This document shows, in pieces, positions 47,989 through 63,191 of a stretch of DNA of 64,000 bases. Both the position numbers and the translations under genes were made by a program. The stretch covers positions 2,462 through 66,461 of the forward strand of contig CAYZAW010000003.1 in assembly GCA_964476505.1 (NCBI GenBank). The letters run 5' to 3'. Every line of letters starts with the position of its first letter. Position 1 is the first letter of the stretch. Under the pieces are notes generated by a model, which was not told the origin of the DNA, did no database searches, and was given only the letters and a program-made list of their open reading frames with translations. This DNA is from an uncultured Oscillospiraceae bacterium (GTDB lineage: Bacteria; Bacillota; Clostridia; Christensenellales; CAG-138).

Positions 47989-49224
47989 TTACTCTTGCTG
48001 TTTTTTATATGCCGATAGGCTTTCTTTTACCTGTTCCAGCGAGCGCCCCGTTTCCCGGGCGATACGCACCAAGTCCTCATACTCCGGCTTTTCCCTGTTT
48101 ACGCCCCAGCCGGATACTGCCTTGATTTTAACTTCTCCGTCAGGCGTTGTTATGCTTTTACTTGTTCGCGCCAGCGTATACCGGTTGCACAGGTATTCTC
48201 GCACGCCAATGGTGGTGGTATGCAAAAACAAAAGCCTTAACAGTTGCTCCTTGCTGCTTTCCCGGCAGATGCAGTACAGCAGCACCCCGGGGCGGCTTTT
48301 TTTCATGCCTGCCGCCACAGTATACACCTCTAACGCACCGCCTAAAAACAACTGCTCCTGCGCAAAGCCGATGGCCTCGGGGGTCATATCGTCTAAATTG
48401 CAGCAAAGCTCCACGACCTGCTCCGTTTGAGACTGCGTGCTGCCTATCAGCGCACGCAGGCAGTTTGCGGCAGGAAATTCCTTGCTGCCCATGCCGTAGC
48501 CTATTTTTTGTACCGTCATTTGCGGTAAGCTTCCAAAGGAAGAAACAAAATACTTCAACAGCGCCGCGCCGGTGGGCGTGCAAAGCTCTCCTTGTATCTC
48601 TTTGCTGTAAACTGGAATGCCCTGCAATAAATATGCCGTTGCTGGCGCGGGAACGGGCAGCACACCATGGGCGCAGTGAACCGTTCCGCTTCCAACGTGT
48701 ACGGCAGACGCTATCACCTGCTCGGGAGAAAGCATATCCATCAGCAGGCAAACGCCCACCACATCCGCTACCGCGTCCATAGTGCCTACTTCATGGAAGT
48801 GTATCTGCTCCACGGTCTTGCCGTGCACATGCCCCTCCGCCTCGGCGATCAGCGTATACACGGCTATTGCATCCTGCTTCACCTTTTCCGGCAGGTCAAG
48901 ATGACTTATCATATGCCGGATGCCGGGAAGCCCCGTGCCGTGCGCATGCTCTTGGGTATGCATATGGCGGTGTTCGTGATGTTCGCCGTCACGGTTTTGA
49001 CCGTCGTTATCCGCAAGCTCTTCTTCGCCGTGTACCGTGACCTCCATGTGCGTGCCGGAGATACCGCATTTTACGGAGGGAACGGCGCGTACCGCCACGC
49101 CGGGCAGACCCAGCCCGTTCATGCGGGCAATAAACGCCGCAGGTTCCGGGCAAAGCTCCAACAGCGCCGCCATCAGCATATCTCCCGCCGCACCCATATT
49201 ACATTCTAAATACAGTGTTTTCAT
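47989..49224 (-). CDS. larC: nickel-pincer cofactor biosynthesis protein LarC (nickel insertase)
   Basis: 411 aa. MGAAGDMLMAALLEL N-terminus (DUF111 family) and a His-rich stretch GEHHEHRHMHTQEHAHG (about 48937-49032). Confidence 0.88.
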   Translation of the reverse strand: MKTLYLECNMGAAGDMLMAALLELCPEPAAFIARMNGLGLPGVAVRAVPSVKCGISGTHMEVTVHGEEELADNDGQNRDGEHHEHRHMHTQEHAHGTGLPGIRHMISHLDLPEKVKQDAIAVYTLIAEAEGHVHGKTVEQIHFHEVGTMDAVADVVGVCLLMDMLSPEQVIASAVHVGSGTVHCAHGVLPVPAPATAYLLQGIPVYSKEIQGELCTPTGAALLKYFVSSFGSLPQMTVQKIGYGMGSKEFPAANCLRALIGSTQSQTEQVVELCCNLDDMTPEAIGFAQEQLFLGGALEVYTVAAGMKKSRPGVLLYCICRESSKEQLLRLLFLHTTTIGVREYLCNRYTLARTSKSITTPDGEVKIKAVSGWGVNREKPEYEDLVRIARETGRSLEQVKESLSAYKKQQE

Positions 49225-49979
49225 ACCTTCACCCCAATATGGTTGATCATGCTTGCCAAGTATCCGGCTCCAAAGCCGTTATCGATATTGACCACGCTGA
49301 CCCCGCTTGCGCAGGAATTCAGCATGGACAGCAGCGCGGATAACCCCTCAAAGGACGCGCCGTAGCCAACGCTTGTAGGTACGGCGATCACGGGGCAGTC
49401 CGCAAGGCCGCCGATCACGCTGGCAAGCGCCCCTTCCATGCCGGCGATGGCGATAATGACCGATGCCTGCATGATATCCTCTACATGCGCAAGCAGCCTG
49501 TGCAGCCCGGCAACGCCCACGTCATACAGGCGCTGTACGGAATTTCCTAAGGCCTCCGCCGTGATCGCCGCTTCCTCCGCCACCGGCATGTCGCTGGTAC
49601 CGCCCGTTGCGATCACGATGGTGCCCCGTCCGCCGGGCTTTGGCAATTCTCCCGCAACGCCGGTTTTGCTAAGCGCATCGTATTCTATGGGTATTTGCTG
49701 CCGCACCGTTTCTGCCGCCTCCGGCGACATCCGGGTGATCAGCACGGTTTCCTGCCCCTGTTGCAGCAGTGCCTTTGTAATGCCTATGATCTGCTCCGGG
49801 GTTTTCCCCGCGCCGTAAATCACCTCGGGGATACCCTGCCGCATGGCCCGGTGATGATCCAGCTTGGCATAGCCCAAGTCCTCAAAGGGCGCGGTACGCA
49901 GCTTTAATGCCGCATCCTCCGGCAGCAGCGTACCTGCCGCCACCTGCTGCAATATCTGCTCCAATTCCTGCTTGTTCAT
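49221..49979 (-). CDS. larB: nickel-pincer cofactor biosynthesis protein LarB (NaAD carboxylase/hydrolase)
   Basis: 252 aa. PurE/AIR-carboxylase-like core (IVIATGGTSDMPVAEEA, IAIAGMEGALASVIGG). Overlaps the larC start. Confidence 0.85.
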   Translation of the reverse strand: MNKQELEQILQQVAAGTLLPEDAALKLRTAPFEDLGYAKLDHHRAMRQGIPEVIYGAGKTPEQIIGITKALLQQGQETVLITRMSPEAAETVRQQIPIEYDALSKTGVAGELPKPGGRGTIVIATGGTSDMPVAEEAAITAEALGNSVQRLYDVGVAGLHRLLAHVEDIMQASVIIAIAGMEGALASVIGGLADCPVIAVPTSVGYGASFEGLSALLSMLNSCASGVSVVNIDNGFGAGYLASMINHIGVKV

Positions 49980-49982
49980 GCG

Positions 49983-50726
49983 TTACCTCCCGGCTAAGTC
50001 CAGCGTTACGGTTGCAAAATACGGTTCCAATGCTTTTTGTATTGCTTCGCGTTCGCGTACCGCGCGTTCCATATCCTCCGCCCTGACCTCCAGCCTTGCG
50101 GCCTGCTCCATCCAGCGAACACGTATATCCTGATAGCCCAGCTCCATAAGCGCCGCCTCTGCGTGCTCCACGCAGTAAAGCATTTGCTGCGTGATGCCCG
50201 TTCCCGTTGGAATGCGGGTGGCAAGGCAGGCATAGGCGGGCTTATTCCACGTAAACAGCCCCGCCTCCTTGGAAAGTGTGCGTATCATGGGCTTGGTGAG
50301 CCCGCATGCTTGCAGCGGCGAGCAAACGCCCAACTCCCGCAGCGCCCGCATGCCCGGGCGGTCGCCGGCATCGTCAGAGGCGTTAGTGCCGTCCAACAGC
50401 AGGGTGTACCCATCTGTCAGCGCCCGTTTTTGCAGAGCTAAAAACAAGGCGGTTTTACAATGGTAACAGCGCTCCTTTGGATTTGCCGCCACCTCCGGCA
50501 GCGCCAGTACATCCAGTTCGATGATGATAAGCTTTGCACCGCAGTCTTGCGCTATTCGCTTGGCATCCTCCAACTCAAAGGCGGGCTGAAAGGCCGTTTT
50601 GATGTAATAAGGCTGCACATCCGCCTTGCATTGCTTTGCCGCATACAAAAGATACGCGGAATCCACCCCGCCGGACAGCCCCAGCGCAGCCCTAGGGTTC
50701 TGCTGAAAAAACGCCTGTAACGTCAT
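49983..50726 (-). CDS. larE: ATP-dependent sacrificial sulfur transferase LarE
   Basis: 247 aa. PP-loop LSGGVDS and the candidate sacrificial Cys in AYACLATRIP. Confidence 0.85.
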   Translation of the reverse strand: MTLQAFFQQNPRAALGLSGGVDSAYLLYAAKQCKADVQPYYIKTAFQPAFELEDAKRIAQDCGAKLIIIELDVLALPEVAANPKERCYHCKTALFLALQKRALTDGYTLLLDGTNASDDAGDRPGMRALRELGVCSPLQACGLTKPMIRTLSKEAGLFTWNKPAYACLATRIPTGTGITQQMLYCVEHAEAALMELGYQDIRVRWMEQAARLEVRAEDMERAVREREAIQKALEPYFATVTLDLAGR

Positions 50727-51445
50727 CGCGCTTCTCCTCCAACGCCAATGGCCTCTACGCCGCAGTCGTCCATTTGCTTTGTATCATACAACAGCGCTTT
50801 TGAAGCGCCGTCTGCAAACAATGCGCCTTGCTTTAGCAGCACCGCCCGATTGCAGGTGTCCGCCGCAAAGGAAATATCGTGGGTGGCGATCACCTTGGTG
50901 CAGGGCAGGCTGTTCAAAATATGGATGAGGTTTCGCCGTGCCTTGGGGTCTAAAAAGGCGCTGGGCTCGTCTAAAAGGATGACCGAAGGCTCCATTACAA
51001 GCACCGTTGCCAGCGCCGCCATGCGCTTTTCGCCGCCGGAGAGGCGCAGCGATGTGCGGCCTTTTAGATGCATGATGCCAAGCGCCGTTAAACAAGCGTC
51101 CACCCGGCGCTCTGTCTCCTCCTCCGAAACGCCTTGGTTTCTGAGGCCAAAGGCGATATCGTCGTAAATCGTTGGCATAAACAACTGATCGTCCGGGTTT
51201 TGAAACACCACGCCTACACGCTGGCGAATGCTTGCAAGCGTGTCTTTACCTAGCCGTATGCCGTCTACGGTGATGCTGCCGGATGCGGGCAGTACACCTA
51301 CCGTTGCCATGATAAACGAGGTTTTCCCCGCGCCGTTTGCGCCAATAAGCGCCACGCTTTCGCCGGAACCCACGGTGAGCGTGATATCCTTTAGCCCTAC
51401 CGTATGATCCGGATAGGTTACGGTGCAATCCGTCAATGCCAGCAT
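50723..51445 (-). CDS. cbiO: ECF/CbiO-type ABC transporter ATP-binding protein
   Basis: The track start 51469 is unlikely. The ATG at 51445 (MLALTDCTV) has GAGGTG 5 nt upstream and lies 1 nt after the cbiQ stop. Walker A GANGAGKTS and signature LSGGEKRM. Confidence 0.88.
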   Translation of the reverse strand: MLALTDCTVTYPDHTVGLKDITLTVGSGESVALIGANGAGKTSFIMATVGVLPASGSITVDGIRLGKDTLASIRQRVGVVFQNPDDQLFMPTIYDDIAFGLRNQGVSEEETERRVDACLTALGIMHLKGRTSLRLSGGEKRMAALATVLVMEPSVILLDEPSAFLDPKARRNLIHILNSLPCTKVIATHDISFAADTCNRAVLLKQGALFADGASKALLYDTKQMDDCGVEAIGVGGEAR

Positions 51446-51446
51446 G

Positions 51447-52241
51447 TTACCACCTCGCGATCCAATCAAACACGTTTACCGCCCGAAACAGCACCGGCAG
51501 CCCGCAGGCGCATAACAGATACGCATAATCGGCGGCAGTCAGCGGTCGTTTTTTTGTATACGCACCGGGAAGGCCCTGCCCCCGGCACTGCATGGCGTTA
51601 TAAATGCGCTCTGCACGGTCGAAGCTTCGAAGCAATAGCTGCCCGGTAAAGCTGCCCATGTGGCGCATTTCTACTCCGCGCCCGCCGCCGCTTCTGAGGC
51701 GGTACGCGGTAAACATGGAGGAAGCCTCCTCCAACAGCGCCGCCACATAGCGATAGGTCATTTCGAACAGCGTGATGAACAACACCGGCAGGTGCAGCCG
51801 CTTTAACTGCCCCGTCAACTGCGAAAAGGGCGTTACGCTGACCAAAAGCAGCACGGCGGATACGCATAAAAACGTTCTGTACAGTATCATCACGAACGTT
51901 ACCGCACCAAGGCTGACCGTAACGCCGCCTATCTGCATCCATGCGCCCCTGTCAAACAGCAGATTGGATACCCCCGCAAACAGGCAAAACGGCAACGCGA
52001 TGGCAGTGCGTTTTATAATCATTCCCGGAGGGACCTCCGCAAGCGCCATGATCAGCACCGGGTAAAACACATAAGGCGCAAGGCGAAACACGGCAGTACG
52101 GCTAAAGGACATCACGCATACGATATAGGTGATGCAGCCCAAAAGCTTTACAAGGGGGTGCAAACGGTGTATGGCCGTGCCCCCCTGTGCAAGCTGCTCT
52201 AAGGAATATATCTCGCTGATTGTACGCCGAATGTCTGCCAT
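51447..52241 (-). CDS. cbiQ: ECF transporter transmembrane (T) component CbiQ
   Basis: 264 aa and polytopic. Typical CbiQ position between the M component and the ATPase. Confidence 0.8.
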   Translation of the reverse strand: MADIRRTISEIYSLEQLAQGGTAIHRLHPLVKLLGCITYIVCVMSFSRTAVFRLAPYVFYPVLIMALAEVPPGMIIKRTAIALPFCLFAGVSNLLFDRGAWMQIGGVTVSLGAVTFVMILYRTFLCVSAVLLLVSVTPFSQLTGQLKRLHLPVLFITLFEMTYRYVAALLEEASSMFTAYRLRSGGGRGVEMRHMGSFTGQLLLRSFDRAERIYNAMQCRGQGLPGAYTKKRPLTAADYAYLLCACGLPVLFRAVNVFDWIARW

Positions 52242-52256
52242 AGTTCTCCCAATGAA

Positions 52257-53273
52257 TTATTCTGCCGTGTGTTTTCGTTTTTTAATAATGTAAATAAGCA
52301 AGCCCGCGCCGCCCGCAAGCACAAATGTCATGGCGGTGCCAATAAGCCCCGCCGCCGTTGTGCCGGATACGGCTTTTCCGTCGCTTCCCGAGGGATACTC
52401 ATAATCCGGCAGCAGCGCCGTTTGTTCCTGTATGGCAGCCGCATCCTCAAACAGACGGCCCTCCGCCTGTAATTCCGCCGTTCCCGCCGTTTTCTCCATA
52501 GACCATTCCAGCCCGTCCGGGTAGGCAGAGGCCGCAAGGGATAAACCGCCGCCAATTAAAAGCGCCAGCACGCTAAAGAGTATTACCACCCGCTTCATGG
52601 GAACGCCCTGCGGTATCGTCTGCCGCATGGCAGCGCTTTCTAACAGCTCCGGCCGCACCTGCTGCACAAAGCACAGCACCGCCGCCGTGATGAGCCCCTC
52701 CACCAAGCCGATCGCAAGGTGGATAGGCTGCATGACCGACACAAACGCACCAAACGGCAGCGCCGTAATGCTGGACAACAGCGTTTGCAACACCACGGCA
52801 AAGGCGCCAAGCTGGAGCGCTACAACGGCAGAGCAAACGGACGCCGTCGTTAACCGCTTTTTTGTAACGCCCTTATGCAGCAGCGGCTTGAACAGCAGCG
52901 GATACACCGCAAGGCAGGGAATGACCCCCATGTTGAATATGTTGCAGCCCAAGGCCAGCAGCCCGCCGTCTGCAAAAAACAGGCATTGAATCAGCAGCAC
53001 CGCGCAAATCGTTAAAAACGCCGGGTATCCCCCCAACATGGCGGCAAGCAGTATCCCGCCGCCGATATGCCCGCTGGAGCCCGTGCCGGGAATGGTAAAG
53101 TTGATCATTTGCGCAGCGAACACGAATGCCCCCGCCACCGCCATCATGGGCAGCTTTTTTTCGCCCAGCTCACTTTTTTGTACTTTTGCCGACGCAAGGC
53201 CAATCATGCCTGTGCTGACGGCGCACATGGTGATCCCCACAGCCGGGGACAATAACGCGTCTGCCATATGCAT
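52257..53273 (-). CDS. cbiM: CbiM/NikM-type metal-capture component fused to a C-terminal PDGLE domain
   Basis: The track start 53345 is unlikely. The ATG at 53273 has GGAGGT 7 nt upstream and gives MHMADALLSPAVG, the CbiM-family N-terminus. The C-terminal ~110 aa contain AYPDGLEWS (PDGLE) and a final TM segment. Confidence 0.8.
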   Translation of the reverse strand: MHMADALLSPAVGITMCAVSTGMIGLASAKVQKSELGEKKLPMMAVAGAFVFAAQMINFTIPGTGSSGHIGGGILLAAMLGGYPAFLTICAVLLIQCLFFADGGLLALGCNIFNMGVIPCLAVYPLLFKPLLHKGVTKKRLTTASVCSAVVALQLGAFAVVLQTLLSSITALPFGAFVSVMQPIHLAIGLVEGLITAAVLCFVQQVRPELLESAAMRQTIPQGVPMKRVVILFSVLALLIGGGLSLAASAYPDGLEWSMEKTAGTAELQAEGRLFEDAAAIQEQTALLPDYEYPSGSDGKAVSGTTAAGLIGTAMTFVLAGGAGLLIYIIKKRKHTAE

Positions 53274-53325
53274 AAGGCGTACCTCCAATAAAAAATGCCC
53301 CAAAGGAGTCTGTTCCCTGCCGGGA

Positions 53326-53382
53326 ACCGATCGCCTTCGTGGCAATACATTATTCCAGTAATCATTGACCGATCGACCTTCG
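53326..53382 (-). repeat. direct repeat CGAAGG(T)CGATCGGT x2 in the nik/lar leader
   Basis: On the plus strand: accgatcgccttcg (53326-53339) and accgatcgaccttcg (53368-53382). Each contains the palindrome CGATCG. Confidence 0.6.
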
Positions 53383-53447: not shown

Positions 53448-53477
53448 ATTATACTATAAGCCCCGTATTCCCGTCAA
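53448..53477 (-). promoter_or_regulatory. sigma-A-like promoter for the cbiMQO-larEBC operon
   Basis: Minus strand reads TTGACG, then an 18-nt spacer, then TATAAT. The -35 overlaps the aroQ stop codon. The predicted 5' UTR is about 165 nt. Confidence 0.5.
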
Positions 53478-53908
53478 TTCCCATACCGGCTTTTTAAATA
53501 CGCCATGGCTTCCCGATACCCCATAAACCCGTGCCCGATAACGGTTTTTTCGCAGGCCATGCCCGCATAGGAAACCTGCCGAAAGGCTTCCCTACTGCCA
53601 ACATCGGAAATATGCACCTCCACCGCCGGGATCGACACCGCTCTTAAAGCGTCAAGTATAGCGATGCTGGTATGGGTATACGCGGCAGGGTTGATCACGA
53701 TGCCGTGAAACACGCCGTATGCCTGCTGGATAACGTCTACGATAGCCCCCTCATGGTTGGACTGAAACAGCTCCGCCTCTACGTTTAGCTCCTTTGCCCA
53801 ACCTAAAACGGCCTGCTCCAAATCCTTATAGGTTTGCCTGCCGTATATCTCCGGCTCTCGAATGCCCAGCATGTTTATGTTTGGCCCGTTAACGATCAGT
53901 ATTCGCAT
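53474..53908 (-). CDS. aroQ: type II 3-dehydroquinate dehydratase
   Basis: 144 aa. MRILIVNGPNINMLGIREPEIYG N-terminus. Confidence 0.92.
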   Translation of the reverse strand: MRILIVNGPNINMLGIREPEIYGRQTYKDLEQAVLGWAKELNVEAELFQSNHEGAIVDVIQQAYGVFHGIVINPAAYTHTSIAILDALRAVSIPAVEVHISDVGSREAFRQVSYAGMACEKTVIGHGFMGYREAMAYLKSRYGN

Positions 53909-55124
53909 AAAACGCCTCCAATAGCCGCCCCACGGTTTCCTCCGCCGGGCAGTCGTTTGTGATCACATCGTCCGAAAACCGCTCGTAATACGCACGGCGC
54001 GCTTCGTACAATGCGGTGATCGGCTGCTTTACGGATAGCGGACGCCCCGCCACAGGCAGCGCTTCCAAGCGTCTTTGCAGCCAGTATATCACGCCGTTTT
54101 GCTTTAGCGCCGCAAGGTTTTCTTCCCGCAGTACCGCGCCGCCGCCTGTAGCGATCACAACGCCGGTGCGCTTGCCAGCCTCCTGTATGACCTCCGTTTC
54201 CGTTTTGCGAAAGGCCGCTTCTCCCACCCGGGAAAGATACGAAGCCGGTTCCTCCCCCACCGCCGCTTGAATGAGATCGTCCGTATCGATCAGCGTTCGG
54301 CCTGTCTTTTTTGCCAACAGCGTTCCCACCGTGGTTTTGCCGCAGCCCGGCATGCCGATCAGTACAATGTTTTTCCGCTTTTGCAGCAGCGCGGCAGTGA
54401 TCTCATCCGTTCGGCTGTTTGGCATAGATGTGTTTAAAAACAGCTCCGCGCTTTTTTTCGCCTGTGAAACAAGCATATACAGCCCGCCGGCAGCGGATAT
54501 GCCCCGTTTGTTTGCCGCAAGCACCAGCGCAGAGGATAAGGGGTTGTACACCACGTCCACCACGCCGCAAAGAGCAGGAAATATAGAAATATCCACCGGC
54601 GCTTCGCCGTTATTGGGGTACATGCCAACGGGCGTTGTGTTCACGATTAGCGCCGCATCCCGGTGATGCTCCTGTAGCATGCCGTAGGTAACAGGCCCGC
54701 TTCTGGATACCACAACGATTTCCTTCGCGCCTATGTGCCGAAGAACTGCCTGCGCCGTGCGGCTGGTGCCGCCGCCGCCTAAGACCAATGCTTTATTTCC
54801 TGCCGGGTCGATCCCTTGGCGGCGTATCAACGCAGTCAGCCCGTAAAAATCCGTATTGTCCCCCAACAGCTTTCCGTTTCTGTTTACAACGGTGTTTACC
54901 GCGCCGATCTCCCTTGCGATATCTGACAATGAATCGCAATAGGAAATGACCGCCTGCTTGTAGGGGAGGGTCACATTTATACCGCAAAAGGCCTTTTCGC
55001 GCATGAATCCGTCCAGCGCGTCCTCCGGCATGCTGATAAGTTCGTAGGCATACGCCCCCAGCATGGCGTGTATCTCCGGGGAAAAGCTATGCCCCAGCGT
55101 TTTTCCGATGAGCCCGTACTGCAT
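53889..55124 (-). CDS. aroE: fused shikimate dehydrogenase (N-terminal) / shikimate kinase (C-terminal)
   Basis: 411 aa. AroE motifs (GHSFSPEIH, NVTLPYK, NTD, LGGGGTSR) lie in aa 1-245. AroK P-loop IVLIGMPGCGKTT plus DTDDLI start at aa ~252 (nt ~54377). Confidence 0.85.
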   Translation of the reverse strand: MQYGLIGKTLGHSFSPEIHAMLGAYAYELISMPEDALDGFMREKAFCGINVTLPYKQAVISYCDSLSDIAREIGAVNTVVNRNGKLLGDNTDFYGLTALIRRQGIDPAGNKALVLGGGGTSRTAQAVLRHIGAKEIVVVSRSGPVTYGMLQEHHRDAALIVNTTPVGMYPNNGEAPVDISIFPALCGVVDVVYNPLSSALVLAANKRGISAAGGLYMLVSQAKKSAELFLNTSMPNSRTDEITAALLQKRKNIVLIGMPGCGKTTVGTLLAKKTGRTLIDTDDLIQAAVGEEPASYLSRVGEAAFRKTETEVIQEAGKRTGVVIATGGGAVLREENLAALKQNGVIYWLQRRLEALPVAGRPLSVKQPITALYEARRAYYERFSDDVITNDCPAEETVGRLLEAFYANTDR

Positions 55125-55393
55125 TACAGCCGCCTGTTCTGGGCGTTCCGGCTAAGCTGAAACAGCAGGCAAAACAGTTCCCGCGCATCCTTCGCATAGG
55201 TATCCCCAGCGTTTTGTTCCACCCGCGCCAGTATCCGTTCCTCCCGCCCCGTATCCAGTACGGGAACGGCATGTCGCGCTTTATAATCCGCCACCGCCGC
55301 CACCGTATCCATGCGCTTTAGAAACAAGCGCAAAATCGCATCGTCTATTTGATCGATCTCGCTTCGTAATACGTCCAAGCTCTTTTCATCCAT
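55124..55393 (-). CDS. chorismate mutase (small AroQ class)
   Basis: 89 aa. LRSEIDQIDDAILRLFLKRMD...VLDTGREERIL. Confidence 0.8.
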   Translation of the reverse strand: MDEKSLDVLRSEIDQIDDAILRLFLKRMDTVAAVADYKARHAVPVLDTGREERILARVEQNAGDTYAKDARELFCLLFQLSRNAQNRRL

Positions 55394-55402
55394 AGCGCCC
55401 TC

Positions 55403-56485
55403 CTATTTTCCCGCCGCCAGCAGCATGTCTAGAAGCACCAGCGCCGCCGCTGCCTCCACGCAGGGTACCGCCCTTGGCACAATGCACGGATCATGCCTGC
55501 CAGCTACCGTGATTTTTGCGGGCGTACCGTCCGAAAGCCGAACCGTATCCTGCGGCATGCCAATGGAAGGCGTTGGCTTGATAGCTACCGTAAACAGAAT
55601 CGGCATGCCTGTGGTGATTCCGCCCAGTATTCCGCCGCAATGGTTGGTTTGTGTCTTTACAGCGCCGTCATGCATCACATACGCGTCGTTGTTTTCGCTG
55701 CCATACATGCCCGCCACAGCAAAGCCGTCCCCAAAGGAGATCCCCTTAACAGCCGGAATGCCGAACAACGCCGCGCTCAAGCGGTTTTCCACACCGCCAA
55801 ACATGGGCTCGCCCACACCCGCAGGCATGCCCACGGCGGCGCATTCAATGCTGCCGCCAACGGAATCACGGCGCGACATCGCCTCTTTTATTATACTTCT
55901 CATGCGCTCCGCTGCCGTACTGTTCAGCACGGGAAAGTCCCGTTCTCCCACCTGATTCAATTCATCAGCCGATACCGTAACAGGATCGAACCCCGTATCC
56001 GCCGCATCCATGATGTTTTTGATATGCGCGCCAACGGTAACGCCGCGCCGCGCAAGTATCTGTTTGCATACTGCGCCTGCAAAGCACAGCGGTGCCGTAA
56101 GCCTTCCTGAAAAATGTCCGCCGCCGCGCCCGTCCTGAAAACCGGCATATTTAACGTGCGCGGGATAGTCCGCATGTCCCGGCCTTGGCAGCGCCTCCAG
56201 CGCCGCATAGTCCTCCGAGCGCGTGTCTGTATTTTTGATCACCGCGCAAAGCGGCGCGCCGCAGGTCATGCCCTGATATAAGCCGGAAAGCACCTCAGGC
56301 TCGTCCGATTCTTGCCTTGGGGTAGCCAGCGCGCCGCCAGGTGCGCGCCTTGCTAAAAACGCACGCACTTCGTCAAGATTGATGGATTCCCCGGCAGGAA
56401 GCCCGTCTATCACCACGCCGATTCCCGCGCCGTGGGACTGCCCGAATATGCTGATGCGAAGCCGTTTTCCTATCATGGACGACAT
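55403..56485 (-). CDS. aroC: chorismate synthase
   Basis: 360 aa. RISIFGQSHG and RPGHADY motifs. An alternative start at 56476 would give an ATGA overlap with the aroA stop. Confidence 0.92.
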   Translation of the reverse strand: MSSMIGKRLRISIFGQSHGAGIGVVIDGLPAGESINLDEVRAFLARRAPGGALATPRQESDEPEVLSGLYQGMTCGAPLCAVIKNTDTRSEDYAALEALPRPGHADYPAHVKYAGFQDGRGGGHFSGRLTAPLCFAGAVCKQILARRGVTVGAHIKNIMDAADTGFDPVTVSADELNQVGERDFPVLNSTAAERMRSIIKEAMSRRDSVGGSIECAAVGMPAGVGEPMFGGVENRLSAALFGIPAVKGISFGDGFAVAGMYGSENNDAYVMHDGAVKTQTNHCGGILGGITTGMPILFTVAIKPTPSIGMPQDTVRLSDGTPAKITVAGRHDPCIVPRAVPCVEAAAALVLLDMLLAAGK

Positions 56486-57729
56486 ATAGCGTTTCCTCCC
56501 AGCCTGTTAAAATCCGCAAAAAACTGCGGGTAGGATTTATTGACTGCCTCCGCGCCGGTAATGATGACCGGCTCCCGGCACAAAACCGAAGCCATAGCCG
56601 CCGCCATTACGATGCGGTGATCTCCCGCGCCCGTGACCGTTCCGCCCCGAAGGATGCCGCTGCCTCGTATGGTTAAGCCATCCGGCTGCTCCGTTACAGC
56701 CCCGCCAAGGGCTTGCAGCATCAAAGCCGTGGTTTGCAGGCGGTCGCTTTCCTTTAGGCGAAGCCGCGCTGCGTTTGTGATTTTTGTTTCTCCCTGTGCG
56801 CCCGCGGCTATCACTGCCAGAACAGGCACCAAGTCCGGTGTTGCATCTGCATCTATCATACATCCGGTAAGCGGCCTTGCTTGTACCGTGACCGTTGATT
56901 CCAAAACGGATACGTCCGCGCCGAACTGCGAAAGCAGCCTGCAGATGGCGCGATCCCCCTGCTTGCTTGTTGCTTGCAGCCCTTGTACGGATACTGTATT
57001 TGTAAGCGCCCCTGCGCCTAAGAAAACAGCGCTGTTTGACCAATCCCCTTCCGCCGTTAACAAGCCGGGCGTGTGATACCGCTGCCCGCCCGTAATTTGG
57101 AACCCATCCGGCTCTATGTCGATATGGATGCCAAACTGCCGTAATACATCCAGCGTGATGTCAATATAGCCCCGGGAGCTAAGCGGTGTTGTAAGCAGGA
57201 TGCGGCTGTTTTTCTGCAACAACGGCAGGGCGAACAGCAGCCCCGTGATGTACTGGGAGCTGACATTGCCCGGCAGCATGTAAGTGCCCGCCTGCAAACC
57301 GCCCGTAATCCTCACGGGCAGCCGAACACCGTTCGCCTGTACGCCGTGGGACGCCATGGTTTCTATCAGCGCATCCAGCGGGCGGGCGGGAAGCCTGCCA
57401 CCGCCCGTAAACCTTGCCCCGCCTAACGCCGCCGCGACCGGCAATAAAAAACGCAGGGTGGAGCCGCTCTCCCCACAATCCAGTAATGGAGAAGCGGGCG
57501 TATGATCAATCGGTGTTACGATCATGTTGGTATCCGTTTGGCGAATATCCGCGCCCAAGCCTTGCAGGCAGCGGATGGTCGCTTGGATATCCTCCGAGAA
57601 CGTACAGCCCACGATCCTTGTAGGTGCATTGGATAAAGCGGCGCAAATCAACTGCCGGTGCAGTACCGACTTGGAGGAGATGGCCTGTACGGTGCCCGTA
57701 AGCGCCGCCGGTTGTATGATGCACTGCAT
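56473..57729 (-). CDS. aroA: 3-phosphoshikimate 1-carboxyvinyltransferase (EPSP synthase)
   Basis: 418 aa. SSKSVLHR, GESGSTLRF and DHRIVMA motifs. Confidence 0.92.
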   Translation of the reverse strand: MQCIIQPAALTGTVQAISSKSVLHRQLICAALSNAPTRIVGCTFSEDIQATIRCLQGLGADIRQTDTNMIVTPIDHTPASPLLDCGESGSTLRFLLPVAAALGGARFTGGGRLPARPLDALIETMASHGVQANGVRLPVRITGGLQAGTYMLPGNVSSQYITGLLFALPLLQKNSRILLTTPLSSRGYIDITLDVLRQFGIHIDIEPDGFQITGGQRYHTPGLLTAEGDWSNSAVFLGAGALTNTVSVQGLQATSKQGDRAICRLLSQFGADVSVLESTVTVQARPLTGCMIDADATPDLVPVLAVIAAGAQGETKITNAARLRLKESDRLQTTALMLQALGGAVTEQPDGLTIRGSGILRGGTVTGAGDHRIVMAAAMASVLCREPVIITGAEAVNKSYPQFFADFNRLGGNAICRP

Positions 57730-57734
57730 ATCTA

Positions 57735-58802
57735 TTACCGCAGCCCGGCTTCAAAATAAGCCGGAAGCTCTTCCGTTTTGATGGTATGGCAAATGCATTG
57801 CTCGATCGTTTCCGGTAATATCAGCGTAACGGTATCCCCGCGCCGTTTTTTATCGTTTGCGGCAAAGGGCAGCAGCTCGTTTGCCGTAAAACCGCAAACC
57901 GTTGGCAGCCCGTTATGCTGCAGCGCTTCTTTGATCTTGTTGGCGCAGGGTTCCTTTGCTATTTCCAGCTTTTCCGCCGCCCGCGCCGCCAGCAGCATGC
58001 CCATGCCCACAGCCTGCCCGTGGGATACCGCAAACCCGCTTGCCCCTTCTATGGCATGCCCAAAGGTATGCCCTAAATTCAATAACTGGCGGCAGCCGGA
58101 ATCGAATTCGTCCTGCTCCACCAGCTTCGCCTTGATGGTTACACAGCGCTCGATCAACGCCGCCGCAATCTTTCGGCAGTTACCGCCCGCTGCTTGTTCA
58201 AATAACGTTTTATCGCAGATCACGCCGTACTTGATCGTTTCTGCCATGCCCTCCGAGAACTGCGCCTCCGGCAGCGTGGAAAGGGTATTTGTGTCGTGTA
58301 GCACAAGCCTTGGCTGCCAAAACGCACCCGCCAGATTTTTGCCTGCGGGAAGATCAACTGCCGTTTTGCCGCCCACGCTGGAATCCACCGCCGCAAGCAA
58401 TGTGGTGGGAAGCTGTACAAACGGCGTTCCCCGAAGGTAACAGGCTGCCGCGAACCCGGCAATATCCCCGGGCACGCCGCCGCCCAGCGCAACGATCACA
58501 TCCGATTTTGTAAGCTCATTTTCTGCAAGGAATTGCAGGATAGAAGCGAACGTTTGCATGGTTTTGCTCTTTTCGCCATGCTCCATTACATAACAGCAAA
58601 CGGTAAAGCCTGCGCCTTCCAGCGCGTTTTGCACCTGTTTGCCGTACAGAGCGTTTACCGTATCGTCCGTTACGATAGCCGCAAGCTTTGCGGACGCAGC
58701 CACCGCCCGTATGCTATTTGCGCAGTCGCTAAGCAGGCCGGAGGCGATCACCACATCGTACTCCCGGGATGCGTTTACCCGTACTCTTCGTTCCCGCTCC
58801 AT
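57735..58802 (-). CDS. aroB: 3-dehydroquinate synthase
   Basis: 355 aa. ALGGGVPGD and LNLGHTFGHAIE motifs. Confidence 0.92.
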   Translation of the reverse strand: MERERRVRVNASREYDVVIASGLLSDCANSIRAVAASAKLAAIVTDDTVNALYGKQVQNALEGAGFTVCCYVMEHGEKSKTMQTFASILQFLAENELTKSDVIVALGGGVPGDIAGFAAACYLRGTPFVQLPTTLLAAVDSSVGGKTAVDLPAGKNLAGAFWQPRLVLHDTNTLSTLPEAQFSEGMAETIKYGVICDKTLFEQAAGGNCRKIAAALIERCVTIKAKLVEQDEFDSGCRQLLNLGHTFGHAIEGASGFAVSHGQAVGMGMLLAARAAEKLEIAKEPCANKIKEALQHNGLPTVCGFTANELLPFAANDKKRRGDTVTLILPETIEQCICHTIKTEELPAYFEAGLR

Positions 58803-58813
58803 GCTACTTCCTC

Positions 58814-59662
58814 CTAAGAAACGCCTCTTGCGGCATCCGCCTGCGTTTTAAAGGCTGCGCCTTCCTCCAGCAAGGCCGCAAACGCTTTTTCGTCCGCCTG
58901 CTTCAATGCTGTGCTGTATTCGTTTAGCCGTGCGGTCAGTCCTTCGATTTCCTGTATCAGCGCCGCGCGGTTTTCCATACAAAGCTCTGTCCACATGTCC
59001 GCATTGAGCTTGGCGACCCGGGTCGCATCCCGAAAGCTGCCGCCCGTGCACCCGCCGCATTCCACGGAGCGGGGCGTTCTAACATAAGCGCTTGCTAAAA
59101 CATGCGTCAACTGGGAGGTATACGCAATTCTATCATCATGCTCCTCCGGCGTAAACACCGGGGTACGCGCAATGCCAATTTCGGACAGCAACCGCCGCAG
59201 ACGATCCACCACCGCGATGGGGGTGCCGGTATAGGGCGTTAACAGCATGGGGGTCTTTACAAACAGCGTATCCTTGGAGGCTGAAAAGCCGCCGCCCGTG
59301 CCGCCTGCCATTGGGTGCGCCCCGATAAAGGTAAAGCCGTACTGCTTTGCAATAGGCTGCACGCCGTCGCACACCTGCTTTTTTACGCCACAGGTGTCTG
59401 ATACAATAGCGTCCTTGTTGATGAGCGGAGCAATGCGTTTGATATACTCCACCGTGTCCTTCGGGTACAGGCAAACGAATATAAAATCACAGCTAGGAAT
59501 GCGCTCGTCCGTTAATTCCTCATGGATAGCGCCTATCATTTTTGCGCCAAGCGTCACGCTTTTTACCATGTCCACCCCGTACACCGTATGCCCGGTTCGG
59601 TTGTGGAACGCCCGCGCCATAGAGCCGCCGATCAAGCCTAAACCAATGATGCCGATTTTCAT
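58814..59662 (-). CDS. tyrA: prephenate dehydrogenase
   Basis: 282 aa. MKIGIIGLGLIGGS Rossmann N-terminus and GAHPMAG. Confidence 0.88.
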   Translation of the reverse strand: MKIGIIGLGLIGGSMARAFHNRTGHTVYGVDMVKSVTLGAKMIGAIHEELTDERIPSCDFIFVCLYPKDTVEYIKRIAPLINKDAIVSDTCGVKKQVCDGVQPIAKQYGFTFIGAHPMAGGTGGGFSASKDTLFVKTPMLLTPYTGTPIAVVDRLRRLLSEIGIARTPVFTPEEHDDRIAYTSQLTHVLASAYVRTPRSVECGGCTGGSFRDATRVAKLNADMWTELCMENRAALIQEIEGLTARLNEYSTALKQADEKAFAALLEEGAAFKTQADAARGVS

Positions 59663-59674
59663 ACCGTCCTCCCG

Positions 59675-60691
59675 CTACGCCAGCTTGGCATGAAAGGCAT
59701 ATGGCCGGATATGCTCCACTGCCTTAACCAGATTGTCAAAATCCTCCGGCTTTAGGGACTGTCGCCCATCGCAAAGCGCATGATTCGGGTCGTTGTGCAC
59801 CTCGATCATCAGCCCGTCCGCCCCAGCGGCAGCCGCCGCCAGCGCCATGGGAAGCACCAGCTCGGATTTACCGGTGGCATGGCTGGGGTCAACGATCACG
59901 GGAAGGTGCGTGGCCTTTTTTAGCACCGGCACCGCCGAAAGATCCAGCGTGTTTCGGGTTTCCTGCGAGAAGGTGCGAATGCCCCGCTCGCAGAGTATCA
60001 CTTGCTCGTTGCCGCCGGAGAGGATGTACTCAGCGCTCATCAACAGCTCGTCGATGGTGCTGGATAAGCCGCGCTTTAGTAAAATCGGTTTTCTGATTTT
60101 ACCGAGCGCCCGCAGCATTTCAAAATTCTGCATGTTTCGCGCGCCCACCTGAATCACGTCCACATCGTCAAAGAGGGGCAGTTGGGAAAGATCCATGATC
60201 TCCGTGACTACCGGAAGCCCAGTGGCGTTTCTTGCTTCCAGCAGGAATTCCAAGCCCTTTTCGTGCAGCCCTTGGAAAGCGTACGGAGAGGTTCTTGGCT
60301 TAAACGCGCCGCCTCTAAGCATGCCCGCGCCGGACTTTTTTACCAGCTTTGCCACCTCGCAGATCTGCGCCTCGCTTTCGATGGAGCAGGGGCCTGCGAT
60401 GTATAAGAAGTTGCCGCCGCCCACCTTTGCGCCGCGCACCTCCACCACGGTATCCTCCGGATGAAACGCACGGTTGGCGTCTTTATAGGGCTCTTGGATG
60501 CGCTTTACATCCTTCACGATATCCAGTGCCAGTAATAAGTCCATATCCACTACAGACGTGTCCCCCACCAAGCCCATAATGGTCTGCTGGGTGCCCTGCG
60601 ACATATGAATCTGCAAATTGAGGCTGTGGAGCCAGTCCACCAGGTTTTGATACTGGTTTTGATCCGGATTGGGGTTTAATACAACGATCAT
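59675..60691 (-). CDS. aroF: 3-deoxy-7-phosphoheptulonate (DAHP) synthase, type I-beta with an N-terminal regulatory domain
   Basis: 338 aa. A ferredoxin-like N-terminal segment of about 70 aa is followed by a KDO8PS-like barrel ([26 protein letters not shown]). Confidence 0.9.
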
Positions 60692-60713
60692 GTGCGTTTC
60701 CTCCCGATTATTT

Positions 60714-60748
60714 CAAAATAAAAGCCCCGCAGCGTGTACTGCGAGGCT
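60714..60748 (-). terminator. attenuator terminator in the aro operon leader
   Basis: Minus-strand RNA reads AGCCUCGCAG-uacacg-CUGCGGGGCU (10 bp, one G-U) followed by UUUAUUUUG. It ends about 20 nt before the aroF ATG. Confidence 0.8.
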
Positions 60749-60762
60749 GTTTTAACACAGAA

Positions 60763-60778
60763 AGCCTTCTAAACGCAG
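60763..60778 (-). promoter_or_regulatory. antiterminator arm (near-copy of the terminator 3' arm)
   Basis: CUGCG-uuuaga-AGGCU lies immediately 3' of the leader-peptide stop codon. It is complementary to AGCCUCGCAG (60739-60748). Confidence 0.6.
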
Positions 60779-60856
60779 TTATACGCCAATAACCATCTGC
60801 ACCGCGTACAGATAGTAATAATAGCTGGCGTAAGCTGCGAAACGTTGCTGCATCAT
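60779..60856 (-). CDS. Tyr-rich leader peptide (25 aa) of the aro-tyrA operon
   Basis: GAAGGAG, then 6 nt, then ATGATG CAG CAA CGT TTC GCA GCT TAC GCC AGC TAT TAT TAC TAT CTG TAC GCG GTG CAG ATG GTT ATT GGC GTA TAA. This is MMQQRFAAYASYYYYLYAVQMVIGV, the 3' end of the 94-aa track ORF 60779-61063. Confidence 0.7.
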   Translation of the reverse strand: MMQQRFAAYASYYYYLYAVQMVIGV

Positions 60857-60882
60857 ACTGCGCTCCTTCAAGACTTTCGGAT

Positions 60883-60911
60883 ATGATAGCACGGTTCTTC
60901 GGGATTGTAAA
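60883..60911 (-). promoter_or_regulatory. sigma-A-like promoter of the aro leader
   Basis: Minus strand reads TTTACA, then a 17-nt spacer, then TGc-TATCAT (extended -10). The predicted TSS is about 7-10 nt before the leader RBS. Confidence 0.6.
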
Positions 60912-60995
60912 GAGCTTTTTCCTGCCATACCGAAGCGCCCAGCCACCGTTAGCGTACCCGACGTATACCCCGCTTTTTTAAAGTGCCCGCCCTTC

Positions 60996-61036
60996 AGAAA
61001 AGCGCTCTGGCAGCAACTGCATTGCCGCCAAAGCGC
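60996..61036 (-). terminator. intrinsic terminator after the second GH3 gene
   Basis: Minus-strand RNA reads GCGCUUUGGCGGCAA-ugcag-UUGCUGCCAGAGCGC (15 bp including G-U pairs) followed by UUUUCU. Confidence 0.75.
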
Positions 61037-61082
61037 CCTTCTGCTGGCTATTCTCAACGCCATACGGCGCGAAAATCAATGC

Positions 61083-63191
61083 TTACACCAAGCCCTCGCA
61101 ATGCAGCTTTACGGCATTATGCCCCGTCAGCGCGGAGGTCCGCGCATCCGGCTGCCCCATGCCAACGTACAGCACGGGCTTGCCGTCCATCATGCGCTTC
61201 CCCTCCTCGTTTACCACAAGGAAGCTGTCCTTGGGAATGCGAAGCGTTACGTTCACCTTTTGCCCAATGGGGCAGAATATCCGCTGGAACGCGCAAAGCC
61301 TTGCGTGCACGGGGGCATAATCGCTGGCCTCGTTTTGGCAGTACACCTGCACCACGTCCTGCGTATCCGCCTTGCCCGCGTTGGTCACAATGGCTTCCAC
61401 AACCAACGTACCGCTCTCCTCCTTTACATCGGCGGAGAGTACAAAGGCATCCCCATAGGTCAAGCCAAAGCCGAAGGGATAGATGGGGTCTCCGTTGTAA
61501 TAGCGGTAGGTTCTGCCACGCATGGCATAATCCGTAAAGGGCGGCATTTCCTGCAGCGCCTCGTTATGATAGAAGGTGACCGGCAGCTTACCGGAGGGCG
61601 ATACCTTGCCGAACAAAATATCCGCCACGGTTTTGCCGCCCCGCGCGCCGGGATACCACGGCAGCAGCACCGCCGCCGCTTTTTCTCCCGCTGTTCCTAA
61701 ATCGATGGAGCTGCCCGCCATCAGGCAGATCACCACCGGCTTACCGGTAGCAAGCACAGCCTCCAGCATCTTTTGCTGGGAAGCCGGAAGCAGCAGGTCG
61801 TTCTTGTCCCCGGAGGCCGCCTGATTACCGTCGTCGCCCTCTTCGCCCTCTAAGCTTTCGTCCAAGCCGACTACGGCGATCACGATATCCGAAAGCTCGG
61901 CTACCGCCTTGGCCTCTGCCAAACGGTCGTCCGCCTGCGCCAATATCTCCACTCTGTCCTGACAGATATGGCAGCCCTCGGCGTAGTACACCCGCGCCGC
62001 GTCTCCCACTTCCTGCTGGATACCCTCCAGCACCGTGATGTAGGTAGACGAGGTGCCGTAGTAGTTGCCGATAAGCGCCGCGCGGCTATTGGCGTTGGGG
62101 CCAACCACGGCGATGTTTTTGATACGATCGCGATCCAGCGGCAGGATACCGTTGTTTTTCAGCAGCACGCATGCCTTTTGCGTTGCTTCCTCCGCGATCT
62201 TTAAGTGTGCGTTGCACTCGATGGCATCGTAGGCAATGCCGTCAAACTCGCTGCCGTCCATAATGCCTAAGAGATACCGGGTGGTAAACAGATGCACGGC
62301 GGCAGTTCTGATCTGCTCCTCCGTGACCAACCCCTGCTGGTACGCCTTCATCATGTAGATATAAACGTTGCCGCAGTTTAGATCGCAGCCCATTTTCAGC
62401 GCCAACGCGGCGGATTCCTCTAATGTGTCCGTGACCATATGATGCTCGTGGAAATCCCGAATCGCCCAACAATCCGATACGATATGTCCTTGGAACTTCC
62501 ATTTCTCGCGGAGCAGGTCTACCAAGAGGGTTTTGCTGCCGCAGCACACCTCGCCGTTGGTGCGGTTGTACGCGCCCATGACCGACTCCACATCCGCCTC
62601 CTTTACGGCGGCTTCAAATGCGGGCAGATATGTTTCCTCCATGTCTTTCGGAGAAGCAACGGCGTTGAAGCAATGCCGCTGCGCCTCCGGCCCGGAATGC
62701 ACAGCAAAATGCTTGGCGCAGGCGGCGGACTTCATAACCGGCCCCTGCCCCTGCAAGCCGTTGATATACGCTACGCCCAGCCGCGAGGTCAAAAACGGGT
62801 CTTCCCCGTAGGTTTCATGTCCGCGCCCCCAGCGGGGATCGCGGAAAATATTGATGTTGGGCGACCAGAAGGTCAAGCCCTTATAAATATCCCTATCGTT
62901 TTCCTTGGCGCACATGTTGTATTTTGCGCGCCCTTCGGTTGCAGACACGTCGCCCAAGCGCTCGATCAAATCCGGATCGAAGCTTGCCGCCATACCGATG
63001 GCCTGCGGATAGCTTGTGGCAACGCCCGCGCGCGCGACCCCGTGCAGCGCCTCGTTCCACCAGTTATACGCCGGTATCCCCAATCGCTCTATGGCGGGGG
63101 AATCGTAACGCAGCTGGCTTGCCGCCTCTCCCAGCGTCATTTGCTCCACCAAAGCTTTCGCCTTTTTTACCGCTTCCTCACGATCAAACAT
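61083..63191 (-). CDS. glycoside hydrolase family 3 (beta-glucosidase/beta-xylosidase-like)
   Basis: 702 aa. KHFAVHSGPE motif, nucleophile region IVSDCWAI, and a C-terminal Fn3-like DVVQVY segment. Confidence 0.88.
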   Translation of the reverse strand: MFDREEAVKKAKALVEQMTLGEAASQLRYDSPAIERLGIPAYNWWNEALHGVARAGVATSYPQAIGMAASFDPDLIERLGDVSATEGRAKYNMCAKENDRDIYKGLTFWSPNINIFRDPRWGRGHETYGEDPFLTSRLGVAYINGLQGQGPVMKSAACAKHFAVHSGPEAQRHCFNAVASPKDMEETYLPAFEAAVKEADVESVMGAYNRTNGEVCCGSKTLLVDLLREKWKFQGHIVSDCWAIRDFHEHHMVTDTLEESAALALKMGCDLNCGNVYIYMMKAYQQGLVTEEQIRTAAVHLFTTRYLLGIMDGSEFDGIAYDAIECNAHLKIAEEATQKACVLLKNNGILPLDRDRIKNIAVVGPNANSRAALIGNYYGTSSTYITVLEGIQQEVGDAARVYYAEGCHICQDRVEILAQADDRLAEAKAVAELSDIVIAVVGLDESLEGEEGDDGNQAASGDKNDLLLPASQQKMLEAVLATGKPVVICLMAGSSIDLGTAGEKAAAVLLPWYPGARGGKTVADILFGKVSPSGKLPVTFYHNEALQEMPPFTDYAMRGRTYRYYNGDPIYPFGFGLTYGDAFVLSADVKEESGTLVVEAIVTNAGKADTQDVVQVYCQNEASDYAPVHARLCAFQRIFCPIGQKVNVTLRIPKDSFLVVNEEGKRMMDGKPVLYVGMGQPDARTSALTGHNAVKLHCEGLV

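Follow-up and report, generated by a model that had tools for sequence, protein, structure and literature searches.

Firmicutes are classically viewed as controlling their amino-acid operons by T-boxes, or by TRAP in the case of tryptophan, and we know of no tyrosine (Tyr)-specific leader attenuator that has been characterised. We analysed here a stretch of 64,000 nucleotides (64 kb, hereafter the window) from an uncultured Oscillospiraceae bacterium, in which a short open reading frame (ORF) rich in Tyr codons lies on the minus strand between a promoter and aroF, the gene encoding 3-deoxy-D-arabino-heptulosonate 7-phosphate (DAHP) synthase. As judged from the sequence and from its comparison with related Clostridia, this element is most likely a classical ribosome-mediated (leader-peptide) transcription attenuator of the aroF-tyrA-aroB-aroA-aroC-aroEK-aroQ genes, sensing charged tRNA-Tyr.

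Two aroF leaders described in other bacteria offer points of comparison. In Corynebacterium glutamicum, the aroR leader, which contains Phe-Tyr-Phe, attenuates aroF, and ribosome stalling raises read-through (Neshat et al. 2014, as summarised in PMC11802643); according to the same text, limitation for Phe, but not for Tyr, elicits the response. As in the window, a short leader ORF with aromatic codons immediately precedes aroF, the DAHP synthase gene, and serves the same regulatory purpose. This likeness is a functional one, by description: aroR is an actinobacterial leader with a tripeptide signal, whereas the window leader contains 6 Tyr codons and the clostridial family to which it is assigned below contains 3-9 Tyr and Phe codons. 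The second system, uORFC-13-1 of Acholeplasma, consists of a predicted upstream ORF (uORF), which has a promoter, a ribosome-binding site and a start codon, and of an intrinsic terminator behind it (Brewer et al. 2021, PMC8632094). It occurs exclusively upstream of aroF, has a U-run encoding at least one Phe, and is known from 24 representatives in Acholeplasma and environmental sequences only; its authors propose that it senses the incorporation of aromatic amino acids (PMC8632094). Compared by description, a uORF and an intrinsic terminator before aroF, in a Firmicutes-related lineage, are shared with the window, but the description of uORFC-13-1 mentions no Tyr run (PMC8632094).

The window also resembles pheL-pheA and trpL-trp of Escherichia coli in having a run of cognate codons, a hairpin that contains these codons, a candidate antiterminator overlapping the 5' arm of the terminator and a terminator that is the stabler structure. 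However, there is no sequence relationship with pheL or trpL, the Rfam Phe and Trp leader models do not match the window, the putative anti-antiterminator of the window is the leader's own Shine-Dalgarno (SD) region and not a segment inside the ORF, and the codons are those of Tyr. Within Firmicutes, His leader-peptide attenuators have been predicted for hisS/hisZ in the Bacillus cereus group (PMC2965389) and in Clostridioides difficile, Peptostreptococcaceae and Erysipelotrichales (PMC9413887). Leader-peptide attenuation thus exists in Firmicutes, including Clostridia, alongside T-boxes; these His leaders concern another amino acid and other operons and each has a narrow range, whereas the aroF leader family spans many bacterial families. 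In C. difficile, premature transcription termination in the aroF 5' untranslated region was detected from RNA-seq 3' ends, with no mechanism assigned (Fuchs et al. 2021, PMC8237595). This aroF leader, in a member of Clostridia, terminates prematurely like the one proposed here (PMC8237595), and it may belong to the same leader family. The mechanism is not new, since its kind has been known since trpL, and Corynebacterium and Acholeplasma offer counterparts at aroF itself. For Clostridia, we found no Tyr/Phe leader in front of aroF described in the searchable literature; as paywalled surveys lie outside it, a prior mention is possible.

Reading of the minus strand from 60400 to 61200 gave, in this order, a promoter, an SD site, a 25-codon Tyr-rich ORF, an intrinsic terminator and aroF. 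The parts of the element are listed below.

60883..60911, minus strand: sigma-70-type promoter, TTTACA (60911-60906), 17-nt spacer, TG-c-TATCAT (-10: 60888-60883)
60857..60878, minus strand: 5' partner of a long-range helix, GAAAGUCUU...GAGCGCAGU, overlapping the leader SD; proposed anti-antiterminator or SD-sequestering arm
60863..60869, minus strand: leader SD site GAAGGAG, read from the sequence, 6 nt before the ATG
60779..60856, minus strand: leader ORF of 25 codons plus stop, MMQQRFAAYASYYYYLYAVQMVIGV; ATGATG at 60856-60851, TAA at 60781-60779
60806..60832, minus strand: regulatory Tyr codons and proposed stall site, codons 9, 12-15 and 17 (TAC, TAT, TAT, TAC, TAT, TAC)
60782..60832, minus strand: Tyr-codon hairpin, inner helix ACUAUCUGUAC (60816-60806) with GUGCAGAUGGU (60802-60792)
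60782..60832, minus strand: Tyr-codon hairpin, outer helix UACGCCAG (60832-60825) with UUGGCGUA (60789-60782)
60760..60779, minus strand: post-stop switch segment ACUGCGUUUAGAAGGCUUUC, 5' arm of the candidate antiterminator or partner of the leader SD region
60715..60748, minus strand: intrinsic terminator, AGCCUCGCAGU, loop acac, GCUGCGGGGCU, then UUUAUUUU (60722-60715)
60691..60705, minus strand: aroF start, SD GGGAGG (60705-60700) and ATG at 60691, read from the sequence

The promoter, SD site, 25-codon ORF, six Tyr codons, post-stop complementarity and terminator were all present as listed in the initial annotation of this DNA, which had been made from the sequence alone. A consensus scan of the promoter returned 10 matches out of 12, together with the TG of an extended -10. 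Two of the near relatives of the window, the loci L163 and L165, carry CTTTACA and TGnTAYYAT at the equivalent position and share GAAGGAGCGCA with the window at the leader SD. Tyr accounts for 6 of the 25 codons of the leader, four of them consecutive, and Phe for a single codon. Downstream of the stop codon, CUGCG-uuuaga-AGGCU (60778-60763) is complementary to AGCCUCGCAG (60748-60739), which lies in the 5' arm of the terminator. The terminator stem itself (60748-60723) comprises 11 bp, including 7 G-C pairs, closed by a 4-nt loop (-19.8 kcal/mol), and 24 nt separate the end of the terminator from the aroF ATG. The whole leader RNA folds at -72.2 kcal/mol, with z = -5.3 relative to dinucleotide shuffles. 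The Tyr-codon hairpin was present in both the minimum-free-energy and the centroid folds; the pairing of UACGCC with GGCGUA that had been noticed initially is real and forms the outer part of this hairpin, which is probably a pause or synchronisation hairpin, the counterpart of the 1:2 hairpin of classical attenuators.

The GH3 gene located upstream is followed by a long near-perfect hairpin and UUUUCU (60995-61043, minus strand), 40 nt past the GH3 stop codon, and this hairpin is very probably the GH3 terminator; its stem was so long that it escaped a simple terminator scan. Since the GH3 gene ends in its own strong hairpin and U-run, the leader requires a promoter of its own, and has one. 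A mechanically called ORF of 94 aa (60779-61063), which extends the leader upstream in the same frame, was rejected, its start preceding the promoter and lying inside the GH3 terminator region.

Conservation of the leader was analysed with AroF as query in 80 loci from contigs representing one genome per species and 80 loci from metagenomes, to which a few of the closest homologues were added from a collection of 5.8 billion proteins. The resulting non-redundant set contained 140 aroF loci, and the sampled AroF proteins were 60-77% identical to that of the window. The lineage of the window is isolated: identity to its AroF reaches 77% and 75% in the two best full-length relatives, and no full-length AroF above 77% was recovered in the genome scan, the metagenome scan or the search of the 5.8 billion proteins. 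An ATG-initiated mini-ORF with at least 5 Tyr/Phe in 8 residues, located at most 300 nt from aroF, was found in 83% of the 78 loci with enough upstream DNA, the chance rate in the same test being 1.5% in dinucleotide shuffles and 3.8% on the opposite strand. In the non-redundant set, a Tyr/Phe-rich mini-ORF preceded aroF in 123 of the 140 loci (88%), and 120 of these 123 leaders also had a strong hairpin and a U-run between the leader stop and aroF. The alignment of aroF orthologues thus confirmed that the Tyr-run mini-ORF is conserved, usually in a form mixing Tyr and Phe. Over the whole family, Tyr and Phe each make up 17% of the leader residues and Trp 0.3%; an SD sequence of at least 4 nt precedes 91% of the leader starts, compared with 16% of the other ATGs of the same regions.

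The family spans metagenome-assembled genomes (MAGs) labelled Oscillospiraceae, Lachnospiraceae, Christensenellaceae, Acutalibacteraceae and Anaerovoracaceae. The suggestion that the mechanism would be uncommon for the lineage has to be abandoned, as the device precedes aroF in 88% of the sampled loci of related Clostridia; it is rarely described in the literature, and Rfam 15 lacks the family, yet it is not rare in genomes. As in the window, tyrA is the next gene after aroF in 96 of 111 family loci. No association was found between the Tyr bias of the leader and the gene context, the usual aroF-tyrA arrangement occurring with mixed leaders; five loci with aroB next to aroF had Phe-biased leaders, a number too small to be interpreted.

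The RNA structures of the family were tested on an alignment of the leaders (A2) against 500 shuffles. For the terminator, 87% of the cells were paired and compensatory changes occurred in 10 of 12 pairs, values reached by none of the shuffles. A second hairpin joins the last Tyr/Phe codons (CUUUAC) to a GUAAGG motif; it was paired in 92% of the cells and covarying, again with 0/500 shuffles, and controls in which the pairing was slid did not exceed 58%. GUAAGG was present in 43% of the loci (52/120) against 2% expected by chance, 13-17 nt after the last Tyr/Phe codon, and its partner CUUUAC corresponds to Tyr-Phe-Thr codons (for example in L016:2820-2961 and L012:2833-2973). In long leaders, GUAAGG is read as Gly-Lys, while in short leaders it supplies or follows the stop codon; because the same nucleotides are read as Gly-Lys or serve as stop, the constraint acts on the RNA. 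A candidate family antiterminator would pair the segment after GUAAGG with the 5' arm and loop of the terminator, 77% of the cells being paired compared with 31-52% for slid controls.

The dependence of these pairings on the ribosome was simulated in 120 loci by folding the leaders before the 3' arm of the terminator is made, under three ribosome masks. At least 60% of the terminator 5' arm was sequestered by upstream RNA in 100/120 loci with a stalled ribosome, in 16/120 with the ribosome at the stop codon and in 72/120 with no ribosome, and the difference between stalled and stop positions was highly significant (Wilcoxon p = 9e-17). In L163 and L165, the textbook 1:2 / 2:3 / 3:4 arrangement was found. 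Altogether, the core of the initial annotation, namely a leader-peptide attenuator made of a Tyr-rich ORF, a terminator and an alternative pairing, is well supported by the comparative evidence.

To place the window relative to this family, a covariance model (R1) containing two non-conflicting helices was built from 25 aligned canonical leaders, the window and its near relatives being excluded. On both strands of the 64 kb, R1 gave a single match, at 60716-60844 on the minus strand (30.8 bits, E = 3e-4, the E-values of R1 being rough), which covered the full length of the model (positions 1-137). The inner Tyr-codon helix (60816-60792) was aligned to the family hairpin and the window terminator to the family terminator. 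The same model recovered about 45 held-out loci at the expected place just upstream of aroF, with scores of 18-64 bits. GUAAGG is absent from the window and, among 123 leaders, only those of the window and of its nearest relative L161 contain one Phe codon or none, the others mixing Tyr and Phe. Because this motif is missing and the mixing of Tyr and Phe is not found, the window stands apart, on these sequence criteria, within the clostridial aroF Tyr/Phe leader family, as a divergent branch that is Tyr-only. The L161 leader (…AYVSYYYYLY…) has the Tyr pattern AYxSYYYYLY, as in the window.

A separate observation concerns the Tyr codons of these two loci. AGCTATTATTACTATCTGTAC (60806-60826, minus strand), a stretch of 21 nt, is identical in the window and in L161 at every synonymous position, the AroF proteins being 77% identical, and the L161 copy is located about 130-155 nt upstream of the aroF start (L161:1501). 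This identity suggests that either the choice of codons or RNA pairing is under selection along the Tyr run. The near relatives of the window are L161 and L163-L166 only, too few for a covariation analysis of the window's own antiterminator.

In the window, the candidate antiterminator is a bulged helix of 6+5 bp, ACUGCG-uuuaga-AGGCU : AGCCU-CGCAGU (-13.2 kcal/mol). The stop codon stands immediately 5' of its first arm, as in the short-type members of the family. When the RNA was folded as it stands prior to transcription of the terminator 3' arm, the antiterminator formed for simulated stalls at codons 9, 12, 14, 15 and 17, and it never formed once the simulated ribosome was on the stop codon, where the footprint of the ribosome extends over CUGCG. 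The post-stop antiterminator put forward in the initial annotation fits in its geometry, and we regard it as plausible.

The pairing account given there was nevertheless incomplete, as a stronger helix competing for the same segment had been overlooked. In the minimum-energy fold, the post-stop segment pairs not with the terminator arm but with the leader SD region, through a long-range helix of 18 bp, GAAAGUCUU…GAGCGCAGU (60878-60857) : ACUGCGUUU…AAGGCUUUC (60779-60760), with an energy of -24.9 kcal/mol (z = -5.2) that none of 500 shuffles reached. An equivalent helix was predicted in the three nearest relatives, L161, L163 and L165 (z = -2.4 to -3.6). It was not found as a family-wide feature, the mean z of the wider family being -0.56, and it is therefore clade-specific. 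Without a ribosome, the predicted folds contain both this helix and the terminator. Since the SD:post-stop helix forms, an untranslated leader of this clade would default to termination and close its own ribosome-binding site, and the helix may restrict translation of the leader to one round.

Several observations weigh against this antiterminator as the operative switch. At the level of the family, its covariation is weak: 77% of the cells are paired compared with 74% in shuffles, and 12/500 shuffles reach its score, so that compensatory changes in orthologues are strong for the terminator and the Tyr/Phe-codon hairpin and weak for the antiterminator, which appears to be backed by conserved complementarity more than by covariation. 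The drop in sequestration when the ribosome is at the stop codon is partly trivial, less upstream RNA being available to pair. In the window, the antiterminator did not form for the simulated stall at codon 13, the stalled-state fold that contains it was no stabler than folds with shuffled upstream sequence (z = -0.4), and the pairing was not predicted in the nearest relative L161; L163 and L165 use an antiterminator pairing different from that of the window. The comparison of the two conformers that had been suggested at the outset showed that both can fold, but the terminator (-19.8 kcal/mol) prevailed over the antiterminator in every equilibrium fold of the full sequence. Finally, antitermination could in principle be defeated if the SD:post-stop helix formed again once a stalled ribosome had passed its upstream arm. 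As the terminator always wins when the full sequence is present, the mechanism must be kinetic. This is normal for the class: the trp antiterminator of E. coli, at about -12 kcal/mol, is likewise less stable than its terminator, at about -20 kcal/mol.

The same observations are those that speak for a real attenuator working through a different switch, be it the SD:post-stop helix together with the Tyr-codon hairpin, another antiterminator, or a contribution of translational coupling or Rho. Among the alternative structures, the clade-specific SD:post-stop helix is the strongest by a wide margin, the stalled-state fold with the proposed antiterminator is no better than shuffles and the pairing is missing from L161, and the fact that 72 of 120 family members fold an antiterminator in the absence of a ribosome indicates that the logic may differ from that of trp. 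We nevertheless consider such a switch unlikely, since the stop codon directly 5' of the antiterminator arm gives the geometry of the model proposed first, the antiterminator forms for five of the six stall positions that were simulated but for none of the folds in which the ribosome occupies the stop codon, and no better pairing to either arm of the terminator was found in the folds.

Another explanation would be that a protein, a tRNA or a ligand recognises the run of UAY/UUY triplets as an RNA motif, in the manner of TRAP, a T-box or a riboswitch, the ORF being incidental. Repeated UAY triplets do look superficially like a TRAP-type repeat site, and there is nucleotide conservation independent of the frame, as in GUAAGG and in the 21 nt identical with L161. 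However, an SD followed by an ATG open to the Tyr/Phe run was found in frame 0 in 106/123 loci, in frame 1 in one locus and in frame 2 in none. Synonymous codons vary freely in the family, which uses both codons of each amino acid (TAT 235, TAC 266, TTT 409, TTC 86), and the stop codon consistently adjoins the antiterminator 5' arm or lies 3' of it. A search of 60300-61300 with all families of Rfam 15 (E <= 10) gave four noise-level matches, all to unrelated families, and no match at gathering level was obtained on either strand of the 64-kb window, whether to tRNA-like, riboswitch or T-box models. T-boxes, riboswitches and the known amino-acid leaders (Phe, Trp, His, Thr, Leu and Leu/phe leader) were accordingly rejected as classes for this locus, in agreement with the initial statement that no T-box is present, and a TRAP-like protein-binding repeat was ruled out by the SD and reading-frame test. 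Taken together, the conservation of the mini-ORF, the SD enrichment and the reading-frame test exclude, on comparative grounds, that the ORF arose by chance and strongly disfavour a TRAP-like triplet motif; an RNA motif of any of these kinds is very improbable. Least probable of all is that the mini-ORF and hairpins are fortuitous, or that the ORF encodes a functional hydrophobic micropeptide while the hairpin is a leaky terminator or a stabilising 5' structure without any sensing: the peptide is indeed hydrophobic, but in leaders of 14 to 41 aa with freely varying C-termini the Tyr/Phe run alone is conserved, the same nucleotides are read as Gly-Lys or as stop, and the position between promoter and aroF is kept in about 88% of the loci against 1.5% by chance.

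For the leader-peptide attenuator, which is the reading we retain, the following sequence of events can be proposed; the transcription start site, the stalling, the kinetic competition of the structures, the response to tyrosine and the co-transcription of the genes are inferred in this model. Transcription would start about 25 nt upstream of the leader ORF, and a ribosome would load while RNA polymerase proceeds. When charged tRNA-Tyr is plentiful, the ribosome would reach the UAA and its footprint, extending about 12 nt past the stop, would cover CUGCG. With the post-stop segment covered, the terminator hairpin (60748-60723) would form, and transcription would stop at the U-run without reaching aroF. 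Under scarcity of tRNA-Tyr, the ribosome would stall within the YYYY-L-Y stretch, some 30-50 nt before the stop codon, and the exposed post-stop segment could capture the terminator 5' arm as this arm emerges; the antiterminator would then kinetically delay the more stable terminator, allowing the polymerase to read into the operon. If the leader is left untranslated, the post-stop segment would pair with its own SD region and the terminator would form, giving a default OFF state to which no further ribosomes are admitted.

A more ambitious proposal is that the window represents the first tyrosine-specific leader-peptide attenuator, a Tyr-only offshoot (with no Phe in the regulatory run) of a large Tyr/Phe family of which we found no description and which would govern the shikimate pathway in most of the sampled related Clostridia, equipped with a clade-specific three-way switch at the post-stop segment. 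We put it forward as tentative, holding it to be possible and somewhat doubtful. If true, the three-way switch (SD-paired OFF, ribosome-covered OFF and terminator-arm-paired ON) would amount to a decision taken by a single ribosome in a single round.

The genes that would be regulated are tightly spaced or overlapping on one strand and were assigned with Pfam.

53474..60705, minus strand: regulated operon as a whole
60691-59675, minus strand: aroF, DAHP synthase with an N-terminal ferredoxin-like domain
59662-58814, minus strand: tyrA, prephenate dehydrogenase
58802-57735, minus strand: aroB, dehydroquinate synthase
57729-56473, minus strand: aroA, 5-enolpyruvylshikimate-3-phosphate synthase
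56485-55403, minus strand: aroC, chorismate synthase
55124-53889, minus strand: aroE/aroK, shikimate dehydrogenase/shikimate kinase fusion
53908-53474, minus strand: aroQ, type II dehydroquinase

These seven genes are presumably co-transcribed as one operon. Together they encode the complete common shikimate pathway (all seven steps) plus tyrA, so that the operon is not specific to the Tyr branch, as had been supposed: Pfam shows the whole shikimate pathway plus prephenate dehydrogenase. The aroE/aroK ORF (411 aa) consists of a shikimate dehydrogenase N-terminal domain and a shikimate kinase, and overlaps aroQ. Further downstream, the region 47989-53345 (minus strand) contains a CbiM-PDGLE fusion, CbiQ and an ATP-binding cassette ATPase, as well as a PP-loop ATPase (weak matches to QueC and Asn_synthase; LarE-like), an AIR-carboxylase-like protein (LarB-like) and a nickel-insertion protein (LarC-like). 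This region is probably a cluster for nickel uptake and synthesis of the nickel-pincer cofactor.

Some observations were made in passing on the family loci. The leader is annotated as a free-standing gene of 29 aa in L163 (1298-1387) and L165 (1300-1389), and in L162 (1501-2793) AroF is called at 430 aa, its start being apparently extended upstream through the leader region. Gene calling of the leader is thus inconsistent, and the 94-aa ORF of the window is an artefact of the same kind. Five loci come from MAGs labelled Coriobacteriia, Spirochaetales, Lentisphaerae, Victivallales and Planctomycetia (L010, L015, L028, L031 and L075), with AroF 67% identical to that of the window; a clear Tyr/Phe leader with a terminator is present in L028 and L075, and a weaker leader, under the stricter cut-off, in L031. 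These loci represent either mis-binned contigs or horizontal transfer of aroF with its leader. Fourteen loci with no leader or a weak one were scanned for an exchange between T-box and leader, and no T-box was found upstream of their aroF. One locus without a Tyr/Phe leader (L079) contains a T-box at 5259-5503 (93.6 bits), about 1.3 kb downstream of the end of the aroF match and about 2.3 kb past its start.

The leader described here bears on several practical questions. In annotation, it is sometimes called as a hypothetical gene of 29 aa or swallowed into an over-long AroF. For engineering, it would provide a compact and portable Tyr or Phe sensor, the Tyr-only version of the window being one that would naturally report tRNA-Tyr charging. 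It also bears on regulon models, through the supply of aromatic amino acids in gut anaerobes. DAHP synthases with a ferredoxin-like N-terminal domain, such as that of Thermotoga maritima, are feedback-inhibited by Tyr and Phe, and the leader would place on top of this a second level of control, at transcription, that responds to the same end products. Taken as a whole, these results indicate that a translated Tyr/Phe leader peptide controls entry into the aromatic pathway in most of the related Clostridia of gut and rumen that were sampled.

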